A DNA stretch of 64,000 nt from Escherichia coli (GTDB lineage Bacteria; Pseudomonadota; Gammaproteobacteria; Enterobacterales; Enterobacteriaceae). The DNA lies in assembly GCF_051903065.1 (NCBI RefSeq), contig NZ_CP178438.1. One strand, written 5' to 3'. The translations under genes and the position numbers were made by a program. Positions 32,121 through 33,270 of this stretch are shown here, piece by piece. Position 1 is the stretch's first letter. Every line of letters begins with the position of its first letter. The notes under the pieces were generated by a model. That model worked only from the letters and a program-made list of their open reading frames with translations, made no database searches and was not told the origin of the DNA.

Positions 32121-32811
32121 AGAGTAAAACTCATTAGGATTATCAGAATTCGGCCAATGCATTGCAAAAATCAAATATAGAAAGAAGTGTGCAGGCACTT
32201 AGCCGCGAGGGGCATAGCGAAGCCATACAGAAAGCACTAGCATTCAGAACTCCTGTGAAAGCGGCATAGTGCCGCTGCTCAGGAGTTTTGTTATGACCCG
32301 TATCGTGCTGAGCGTTGCCACCCTATGATGCGATTAAAAAAACTCACCGTCGAGCCGATGATTGACGTCAATGCTATCGGATGATGCCGGGGGTGTTCCG
32401 GAAGGAATTCCTTGTTTCCCGAACTGTTACCAACAAAATTATAACGATGAGCAAGTAAAGACCGGTTGGTGGCAGTACTGACCGGTCTGTGATGGAAGAT
32501 TAATTTCACCTTAAATCCTGGTGCTGTTAGGATGCTGACATTTTTCGGGTACACCATTCAGATTATGCAAATAAAGATCCAATGAAAAAATAAATATCCC
32601 TGAATATAATATATTCATAGCACCCATAACTCATCCTGGGCGATAACTAAACCATTTTTGAGTAACAAATGAAACAACTGCAACGCTCTTATTATTTCTG
32701 GAAAACGTCTCGCAAAAACAAAACAACATGCAAAAATCCGCTTTCGTTAATTAATTTTCCGGCGTAATTTTCGCACATACATTAATGAGTAATATATGTA
32801 AGAGGGTGGCA

Positions 32812-33030
32812 ATGGCGATGAATACGGTTTTTCTTCATTTATCAGAAGAGGCAATTAAACGGCTGAACAAGCTTCGGGGCTGGCGTAAGGTTTCACGATC
32901 TGCAATTTTACGCGAAGCGGTAGAGCAATATCTGGAACGTCAGCAATTCCCGGTGCGTAAAGCAAAGGGAGGCAGGCAAAAGGGGGAGGTAGTTGGTGTT
33001 GATGATCAGTGTAAGGAGCATAAGGAATGA
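32812..33030 (+). CDS. yiiE: Ribbon-helix-helix (CopG/Arc-like) protein YiiE
   Basis: 72-aa ORF MAMNTVFLHLSEEAIKRLNKLRGWRKVSRSAILREAVEQYL... preceded by an RBS. Confidence 0.75.
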   Translation: MAMNTVFLHLSEEAIKRLNKLRGWRKVSRSAILREAVEQYLERQQFPVRKAKGGRQKGEVVGVDDQCKEHKE

Positions 33031-33270
33031 CAAAAATTTTTCATTCTTGAATATAAAAAACAGATGCCCTTATTCTGGTATTAATACAAGGCTGTTTTAC
33101 TTGAACTTATAATAACTGCAACTGTTACATCATATCTGGAAAACGCCTCGCAAAAATAAAAAATGATGCGTAAATGAGCTTTCTTTAAAGATTCGACAAG
33201 GGTACTTTTCTCTCCATAGATATCAAATGATATTGGTCAAATATTTATGAACTCTCTGGCAGGTATTGAT

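Follow-up and report, generated by a model that had tools for sequence, protein, structure and literature searches.

The VapBC toxin-antitoxin (TA) pair of Klebsiella pneumoniae (PDB IDs 7BY2 and 7BY3) and the YiiF protein of Shigella flexneri (PDB ID 2K5J) are the closest described relatives of the locus analysed here, the tandem genes yiiE and yiiF of Escherichia coli, both of which encode small ribbon-helix-helix (RHH) proteins. YiiF and the K. pneumoniae VapB antitoxin of these structures are syntenic orthologues; tblastn gives 63% identity at the K. pneumoniae locus. The S. flexneri YiiF is essentially the same protein as the E. coli one, and its nuclear magnetic resonance structure, from structural genomics, covers the 80-residue form; the entry is called "uncharacterized protein yiiF", gives no function, and does not carry the toxin-antitoxin origin in its name. 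Our literature search found no characterisation of either YiiE or YiiF. The locus was studied in a window of 64 kb of the E. coli chromosome (NZ_CP178438.1, assembly GCF_051903065.1), and coordinates are those of this window unless another locus is named. Like the K. pneumoniae system, it has fdhE as a neighbour, the same leader blocks, and the same conserved upstream motif. It differs in that the toxin gene is reduced to two remnants around repetitive extragenic palindromic (REP) elements and the core promoter is mutated, and Klebsiella in turn is without an extra copy of the yiiE type.

We consider it probable that this is a decaying chromosomal type II TA locus, in which yiiE and yiiF are duplicated vapB genes and the motif shared by their leaders is an ancestral element of the vapBC leader. 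An operon of vapB (RHH antitoxin) and vapC (PIN toxin) ancestrally lay beside fdhE, usually opposite a divergent hydrolase gene that has a LexA-box-like site. Tandem duplication of the leader and vapB in Escherichia gave yiiE and yiiF, and in the window, as in K-12, vapC was later gutted, with REP elements in its place. The core promoter of yiiF has mutated, and its product evolves under relaxed constraint; YiiE has kept an invariant RHH domain and lost the toxin-binding tail. The motif would be a single ancestral cis-element, copied in the duplication and apparently kept by selection. The genes and remnants in question are the following.

32812..33030, plus strand: yiiE, 72 residues, an RHH protein and Escherichia/Shigella-specific paralogue of vapB
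33247..33489, plus strand: yiiF, the orphan vapB antitoxin gene, 80 residues from 33247, or 72 residues from 33271 as in the K-12 annotation
33489..33520, plus strand: 5' remnant of vapC (ATGGGAAAAAA...TGATATCAAT), in which 12 nt of intact vapC are deleted, from the alignment with E. coli E67
33521..33725, no strand assigned: REP-type palindromic elements in place of the middle of vapC, from the alignment and Rfam matches
33726..33782, plus strand: 3' remnant of vapC including the stop codon (...GGTAACGCGGAATACGAGAGAT, a 15-nt deletion, GGTGTCGTCACACCCTATGAGCTGTAA), from the alignment and a tblastn match to VapC residues 102-124

E. coli E67 has an intact gene for a 124-residue PIN protein, annotated as VapC (PIN E value, 4e-19), directly downstream of its yiiF orthologue, the two genes overlapping by 1 nt. 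Aligned with E67, the window retains ~30 nt from the start of vapC and ~57 nt from its end, the middle being occupied by REP-type palindromes; directly downstream of yiiF, an intact PIN toxin gene is not present in the window, only the two remnants. The REP cluster carries Rfam matches to ES036 at 33574-33616 (36.8 bits, with a gathering score of 37.6) and to naRNA4 at 33534-33570, families which we take to be REP-derived, and the matches are probably REP-derived sequence and not separate small RNA genes. The window locus is a degenerate vapBC, not a working system, and full-length vapC is kept in 57 of 5,426 complete E. coli genomes. A survey across genera (one genome per species, 38 loci returned, fabY scored within a 3-kb flank) gave 28 loci of other genera in which a single vapB-vapC pair, complete or truncated, adjoins fdhE, with fabY also present in 24 of them. 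The genera include Citrobacter, Pseudocitrobacter, Klebsiella, Kluyvera, Trabulsiella, Lelliottia, Kosakonia, and Franconibacter, together with Salmonella diarizonae and other Enterobacteriaceae. YiiF matches S. flexneri YiiF (2K5J) with an E value of 3e-38 and K. pneumoniae VapB (7BY2) with an E value of 2e-26, and it aligns with the latter from end to end, including the C-terminal toxin-binding segment (...EEDGxEYQRxLRxEW). Because of the synteny in E67, the vapC remnants, the vapBC loci of other genera, and the orthology to 7BY2, we read yiiF as vapB without its toxin, the orphan antitoxin left from a vapBC that is old, chromosomal, and vertically inherited. The initial annotation of the window had called the two proteins solitary, a description that does not fit their origin, yiiF being the antitoxin of a decayed pair and yiiE its copy. 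YiiF has a pN/pS (ratio of nonsynonymous to synonymous divergence) of 0.28-0.92, and the window protein carries several extra substitutions, e.g., GRIILDL for GRILLDL; YiiF is thus under relaxed constraint and appears to be drifting.

A plasmid origin was considered and rejected: no close plasmid-borne homologues were found, and the matches of 78-88% identity are very large records (0.4-5.4 Mb), taken as chromosomes or pieces of them filed as plasmids.

The two 72-residue products share 30 of 71 positions in a BLASTP comparison (42%; E value, 7e-13) and the pattern L..E.IK.L..L...R.....LREAV.QYL. Pfam RHH_1 matches YiiE with an E value of 1e-11 and YiiF with 1e-3, just under the curated cutoff; the E67 orthologue reaches 6e-6. 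The duplicated unit of about 440 bp comprises leader and gene (32585-33030 versus 33032-33489) and lies in tandem. Identity between the units is 90% in the motif (26 of 29 positions), 59% in the leader that follows it, and 32% next to the start codon; it is 60% in the RHH part of the coding sequence and 54% in the C-terminal part, and the motif flanks are 40-59% identical. Since identity falls off around it, the motif is a genuine local peak of conservation. Named YiiE homologues are confined to Escherichia and Shigella, and other genera have one RHH gene at the site; yiiE is a tandem duplicate of leader and vapB specific to these two. The initial description of the pair as tandem RHH paralogues of the CopG/antitoxin type is thus borne out, and the pairwise comparison of proteins and leaders that it had proposed as a check brings out both the paralogy and the motif peak.

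YiiE residues 1-52 are identical in all eight sequences compared, including those of B2 strains and Escherichia whittamii, at a synonymous divergence (pS) of up to 0.28. Every replacement falls within the last 20 residues, and pN/pS for yiiE as a gene is 0-0.43; these last ~20 residues vary between strains, and no resemblance to the toxin-binding segment of VapB is left in them. This pattern suggests that YiiE, a duplicated antitoxin, has been retained for the sake of its DNA-binding domain; it may now be a free-standing DNA-binding protein.

The motif has the consensus TTCTGGAAAG-N3-CTCGCAAAAG, 27-29 nt long, and its copies in the window, together with a short segment that precedes each, are these.

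32695..32723, plus strand: conserved upstream element ("block B"), yiiE copy, TTTCTGGAAAACGTCTCGCAAAAACAAAA
33133..33161, plus strand: yiiF copy of the conserved upstream element ("block B"), ATATCTGGAAAACGCCTCGCAAAAATAAAA, whose orthologue in other genera is aTTCTGGAAAGnnnCTCGCAAAAgtAAAa
32676..32684, plus strand: AACTGCAAC segment, yiiE copy, shared with the yiiF leader and not found in other genera
33114..33122, plus strand: AACTGCAAC segment, yiiF copy

The yiiE copy begins 115 nt before the ATG at 32812, and the yiiF copy 112 nt before the ATG of the 80-residue form at 33247, or 136 nt before that of the 72-residue form at 33271. The 27-mer TCTGGAAAACGYCTCGCAAAAAYAAAA occurs twice exactly in the window, at 32697-32723 and 33135-33161, and a search allowing up to three mismatches returns the same two copies only (expected number 0, from 100 shuffles). 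Across the complete E. coli genomes, the motif is present in 5,412 of 5,426, at this locus type only, with a median of 2 and a maximum of 4 places per genome; 2 of 9,646 places are plasmid-borne. The near-identical element that had been reported for both leaders was hence recovered, and the concern raised with it, that it might be a general repeat found at many loci, is answered by these 5,426 genomes. The ctgcaac-type segment reported before each element was recovered as well: AACTGCAAC lies 12 nt upstream of both copies (9 of 10 positions identical over 32675-32684), is specific to Escherichia, and taken alone is only marginally above chance.

The motif extends well beyond Escherichia. At 27 syntenic loci of other genera, it reads aTTCTGGAAAG-nnn-CTCGCAAAAgtAAAa, at least 90% conserved in most columns between unconserved flanks, and it stands at -112/-113 from the vapB ATG. 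It is kept where the hydrolase gene is missing (Trabulsiella, RIT714), and a recognisable version lies upstream of a non-syntenic vapBC of Cedecea, so that it belongs to the vapBC module. The two copies in the window follow from the duplication of the leader together with vapB, and the motif is best taken as an ancestral element of the vapBC leader. Its halves, CTGGAAAG and CTCGCAAAAG, are similar, in direct orientation, and 11 bp apart around a freely varying 3-nt center, and by this organization the motif looks like a protein-binding site. Its would-be wobble positions (GGA, CTC, GCA) never vary, which shows that the constraint is not coding, and the middle triplet varies at all three of its positions.

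Several other identities of the motif were tried and set aside. An interspersed repeat of the REP or enterobacterial repetitive intergenic consensus (ERIC) type is ruled out by the two copies in the window and the median of two per genome at this locus. A small open reading frame (ORF) over the motif in the yiiE leader (32670-32768, 32 residues) has no open counterpart in the yiiF leader or in other genera. As to an RNA element, Rfam gives no match in the leaders, there is no evident complementary partner, and the intervening leader is unconserved. Candidate sigma-70 hexamers within the motif, on either strand, match the consensus poorly or fall on columns that vary between genera. To our knowledge, none of the consensus sequences of CRP, FNR, PurR/LacI-type regulators, PhoB, CpxR, Fis, IHF, MarA, or SlyA resembles the motif convincingly.

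The motif sequence was also met elsewhere. A metagenome scan with its 17-base core gave 120 matches, mostly singletons with unrelated flanks and judged to be at chance level; 12 of the 120 have a tblastn match to vapB, vapC, or fdhE and represent this locus. In E. coli SC423, a third copy of the motif stands beside the LexA box of the hydrolase gene, with a hyp-nadS module inserted after it. An exact copy of the 20-mer CTGGAAAGCGCCTCGCAAAA also lies inside the 3' end of SymE-like toxin ORFs (…AGKRLAKSNTNHPA*), at L055:6658-6677 and at least 27 similar metagenome loci, where the next 13 nt resemble the sequence after the hydrolase-side copy of SC423. A homology of the hydrolase-vapB spacer to a symE-like gene was considered and dropped, the similarity ending after ~33 nt. 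The same 20-mer occurs near the 3' end of another gene beside REP-like palindromes (L052:6169-6188 and about nine similar loci). These contexts use three different reading frames, implying identity at the DNA level. The recurrence could reflect the same factor, or a short recombination-prone junction, linking several toxin modules.

The promoter of the locus can be placed with the help of a start site that was mapped for K. pneumoniae KPN_04185 ("yiiF") at 4585660, 4 nt before the ATG, with 4 reads (Kim et al. 2012, PMC3415461, Table S4). This site lies 7 nt after TGATATACT; the sequence upstream, ...GGTGATATACTTGAGGTA, contains an extended -10 (TG-n-TATACT). Conservation in the leader is highest in two blocks, the extended -10 and a second GATATA repeat that covers the start site. 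They survive as ATGATATA-N5-(G/A)TGATATATG at the distant, non-syntenic loci of Cedecea and RIT693, and independent promoter scoring gave TATACT as the most consistent -10. The corresponding positions in the window are the following.

33228..33246, plus strand: decayed core promoter/operator region of vapB, TGATATTGGTCAAATATTT
32790..32795, plus strand: putative -10 hexamer of yiiE, TAATAT, aligned with the extended -10 of vapB (by alignment only)

At the equivalent of 33228..33246, strains with intact vapC and other genera have TGATATACTGGAGGTATAT, a sequence that contains the extended -10, the start site, and the GATATA repeats. Among the E. coli strains examined, all those without vapC now have TGATATTGG...(C/T)(G/C)A(G/A)ATATTT in this region, and the vapC-positive E67 has the ancestral sequence; before yiiF, TATACT has become TATTGG and the GGAGG/GATATA repeat is lost. 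In the yiiE leader, a Shine-Dalgarno (SD) sequence AGAGGG at 32801-32806 follows the putative -10. By their position, and judging from other RHH antitoxins, the GATATA repeats are the best candidate for the VapB operator, and autorepression by the antitoxin would most likely take place there, over the extended -10 and the start site. The motif, at 82-109 bp upstream of that start site, is too distant for the core promoter and would be uncommon as a primary operator, and is therefore neither the core promoter nor the likeliest VapB operator. Of the duplicated promoter/operator module that the initial annotation had seen in the two leaders, the inherited, duplicated regulatory module therefore stands, and the operator part probably does not.

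The strongest competing explanation is that the motif is nevertheless an autoregulatory operator, at which VapB/YiiF and YiiE bind half-sites phased by 11 bp and repress their own genes. In its favour, RHH antitoxins generally autoregulate, tandem RHH dimers are often found on repeats spaced by about a helical turn, and far-upstream auxiliary operators occur in other TA systems; moreover, the motif accompanies vapB in all genera and remains beside vapBC even if there is no hydrolase gene. We regard it as unlikely all the same. The motif, apart from its distance to the start site, has no resemblance to the GATATA repeats over the -10 and the start, and its conservation persists in yiiF leaders even after decay of the core promoter. 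Furthermore, all three predicted DNA-facing positions of the beta-strand differ between the proteins (GRILLDL in YiiF versus NTVFLHL in YiiE), yet the motif is ~90% identical and the promoter-proximal DNA drops to 32%. Autoregulation through the motif, as first suggested, is thus not favoured by proteins that differ in these residues over the same motif, and the protein-specific GATATA repeats over the promoter are the better candidate.

This combination of differing DNA-facing residues, an unchanged motif, and diverged promoter-proximal DNA suggests that a common host factor reads the motif, and in our preferred explanation of an ancestral vapBC leader element it would modulate the promoter from upstream as a protein-binding site, most likely that of such a factor. 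A further-reaching version can be offered only tentatively: the 29-bp element may be the site of a host regulator, or a second, conditional promoter, for vapBC across the Enterobacteriaceae, which in Escherichia, after the loss of the toxin, might still control a YiiE domesticated with a new DNA specificity.

Some observations weigh against the preferred explanation. The start site mapped in Klebsiella has 4 reads behind it, from a table that lists likely processing sites too, and it belongs to the K. pneumoniae orthologue and not to E. coli yiiE or yiiF. A conserved SD-like GGAGG precedes the first ATG outside the mapped transcript with its 4-nt leader, a sign that there may be another promoter further upstream, in which the motif could take part. 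In B2 strains and E. whittamii, the motif of the yiiE leader has a different 5' half (TTGGATGCC, CCGGAAAGC; the lineages are CFT073, VTB96929v, and E. whittamii), and the constraint on this copy is not uniform. Finally, the DNA-facing residues were assigned from the general RHH model and not from a structure with DNA.

A sigma-54 promoter, for which we used the consensus TGGCAC-N5-TTGCW with GG and GC 10 nt apart, would make the motif the -24/-12 element (TGG-N9-TCGCA) of a leadered transcript starting ~84 nt before the ATG in the presence of an active enhancer-binding protein. The GG-N10-GC spacing is exact, TGGAAAG-CGGC-TCGCA matches 9 of 12 consensus positions, the variable triplet falls on non-conserved sigma-54 positions, and the SD-like GGAGG calls for some upstream promoter. 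Against these matches stand the occupancy data, which cover E. coli only: yiiE and yiiF are not among the K-12 sigma-54 sites found by chromatin immunoprecipitation sequencing or the genes that respond to RpoN overexpression in RNA sequencing (PMC4591121), nor are they in the E. coli RpoN list from genomic SELEX (systematic evolution of ligands by exponential enrichment; PMC8743547). In addition, the bases that depart from the consensus, which are A at -23 and at -21 and C at -14, do not vary between genera, conservation reaches further than sigma-54 needs, the Cedecea version of the motif is without the GG (TTTGAA), and there is no gene for an enhancer-binding protein nearby. Such a promoter is improbable.

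Even less can be said for a functionless similarity left by a recent duplication or a gene-conversion patch. Both copies carry changes that are derived relative to other genera (AAAG to AAAC), which fits a duplication after the change, or conversion; however, the element is conserved in ~27 loci of at least 9 other genera with diverged surroundings, and inside the duplicated unit its identity (90%) exceeds that of the coding sequence (54-60%), so that we hold this reading to be very improbable.

That YiiE and YiiF regulate, or are functionally tied to, the AT-rich gene of 604/614 residues, as had initially been suggested, is scarcely credible, since the RHH pair, which physically adjoins the island gene in the window and whose yiiE is reported to be H-NS-bound and SlyA-responsive like many horizontally acquired genes (PMC5797941; PMC6134199), is older than the island, and the site elsewhere holds other inserts or none.

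The pair and the motif are ancestral and nearly universal in E. coli, and the island ORF is present in 766 of 5,426 complete genomes. At the same site, other strains have the hydrolase gene with hyp-nadS, DUF6708 genes, or nothing, and the motif was not found near the island gene. A link between the RHH pair and the island is not supported by these comparisons. The 614-residue ORF (30276-32120) has no significant match in Pfam or NCBIfam; in the identical RefSeq record, it appears as a truncated hypothetical pseudogene and a 304-residue "transposase".

Apart from REP replacement, the locus has taken other courses in the species. In CFT073 (L043, 1801-1850), yiiF and most of vapC are deleted, and the motif of the yiiF leader is fused to the 3' end of vapC (…CTGGAAAACGCCTCGC|GAAATACGAGAGAT…) at a CGC-AAA microhomology, as compared with window positions 33135-33155 and 33735-33782. 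Other B2-type strains, e.g., Nissle 1917, have only the last 59 nt of vapC left. The B2 deletion is a second, independent route of decay. Some E. coli (proteins P0108 and P0118; genomes H23/H24) have a single hybrid gene with the N-terminus of YiiE and the C-terminus of YiiF, joined in the common LREAV(E/D)QYL stretch, as unequal recombination between tandem paralogues would give. E. whittamii (L039, 2880-3400) has one yiiE-type gene only, 96% identical to YiiE, with the vapC 3' remnant directly downstream and a motif copy upstream whose upstream flank matches the hydrolase-side copy of SC423, an arrangement consistent with recombination between motif copies. Two short contigs filed under Firmicutes, NZ_ABFU01000111.1 ("Bacillus coahuilensis m4-4", L004) and UQCR01000230.1 ("uncultured Robinsoniella", L005), contain yiiE-yiiF of the E. 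coli type; the genes of the former are exactly the K-12 sequences, and both contigs look like E. coli contamination.

The hydrolase gene that faces the ancestral locus has a regulatory site of its own. A LexA-box-like CTGTATGGATATACAG abuts the start of the divergent alpha/beta-hydrolase gene, 71-72 bp from the motif where the hydrolase is present. In Citrobacter, Klebsiella, and some E. coli, it lies between a TATAA(A/C) -10-like hexamer and the start of the 305-309-residue hydrolase (L007:2819-2834, L028:2818-2833, L003:1710-1725). The intact form CTGT-N8-ACAG stands beside the hydrolase gene in Citrobacter, Klebsiella, and E. coli SC423, suggesting that the hydrolase may be SOS-regulated. 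Neither leader of the window holds an intact LexA (SOS) box of the form CTGT-N8-ACAG, and the ancestral position is recognised as follows.

33075..33090, no strand assigned: degenerate remnant of the LexA box in the yiiF leader, CTGGTATTAATACAAG (ancestral CTGTATGGATATACAG), from the leader alignment
32636..32652, no strand assigned: ancestral LexA-box position of the yiiE leader, present as a fully degenerate remnant, from the alignment with CTGTATGGATATACAG of Citrobacter and Klebsiella

The hyp-nadS module, which many E. coli carry as an insertion between hydrolase gene and yiiE (L003:1900-1925), has a consensus TATAAT that ends 1 base before the ATG, which would imply another leaderless or near-leaderless transcript of a TA-like module.

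Upstream of yiiE, the region has a further promoter candidate.

32582..32610, plus strand: best sigma-70-like match of the region (ATGAAA-17-TATAAT), far upstream of yiiE, an Escherichia-specific candidate

A part of this match, TGAATATAA, has a second copy at 33047-33056 in the yiiF unit. A SELEX peak of the RpoS holoenzyme was described in the yiiD-yiiE spacer (PMC5493296), and yiiE is reported to be bound by H-NS, induced 2.5-fold by SlyA overproduction, and a SlyA SELEX target (PMC5797941; PMC6134199).

The gene order in the window is fabY (yiiD; 28902-29891), the AT-rich 614-residue ORF (30276-32120), yiiE, yiiF, the REP cluster, and fdhE. E. coli 23CRST027 has a stretch identical to the window, and K-12 has the same arrangement without the island.

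33819-34748, minus strand: fdhE

Nothing here will surprise a TA specialist, the locus being an ordinary one. It does give a clear origin to two long-uncharacterised "y-genes" of K-12, yiiF as an orphan VapB antitoxin and yiiE as its Escherichia-specific duplicate, and it presents one chromosomal TA locus with several independent routes of decay in a single species, namely, REP replacement, microhomology deletion, and fusion of paralogues. The GATATA repeats are where autoregulation should be sought, and the conserved upstream element is where other input should be sought. YiiE, with an invariant DNA-binding domain and a diverged tail, is a candidate for the domestication of an antitoxin into a regulator.

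Among the other known systems, FitAB of Neisseria gonorrhoeae combines an RHH antitoxin with a PIN toxin and binds an inverted repeat in its own promoter. The half-site of its operator, TGATAGCA, is similar to the TGATATAC repeats found at the promoter of vapB, and we know of no counterpart of the far-upstream motif in FitAB. A PDB search detected no sequence similarity between FitAB and YiiE or YiiF. The RHH repressors of the CopG/Arc/MetJ type share with YiiE and YiiF the Pfam RHH_1 family, and YiiE, like them, stands alone without a toxin; unlike them, it derives from an antitoxin by duplication.

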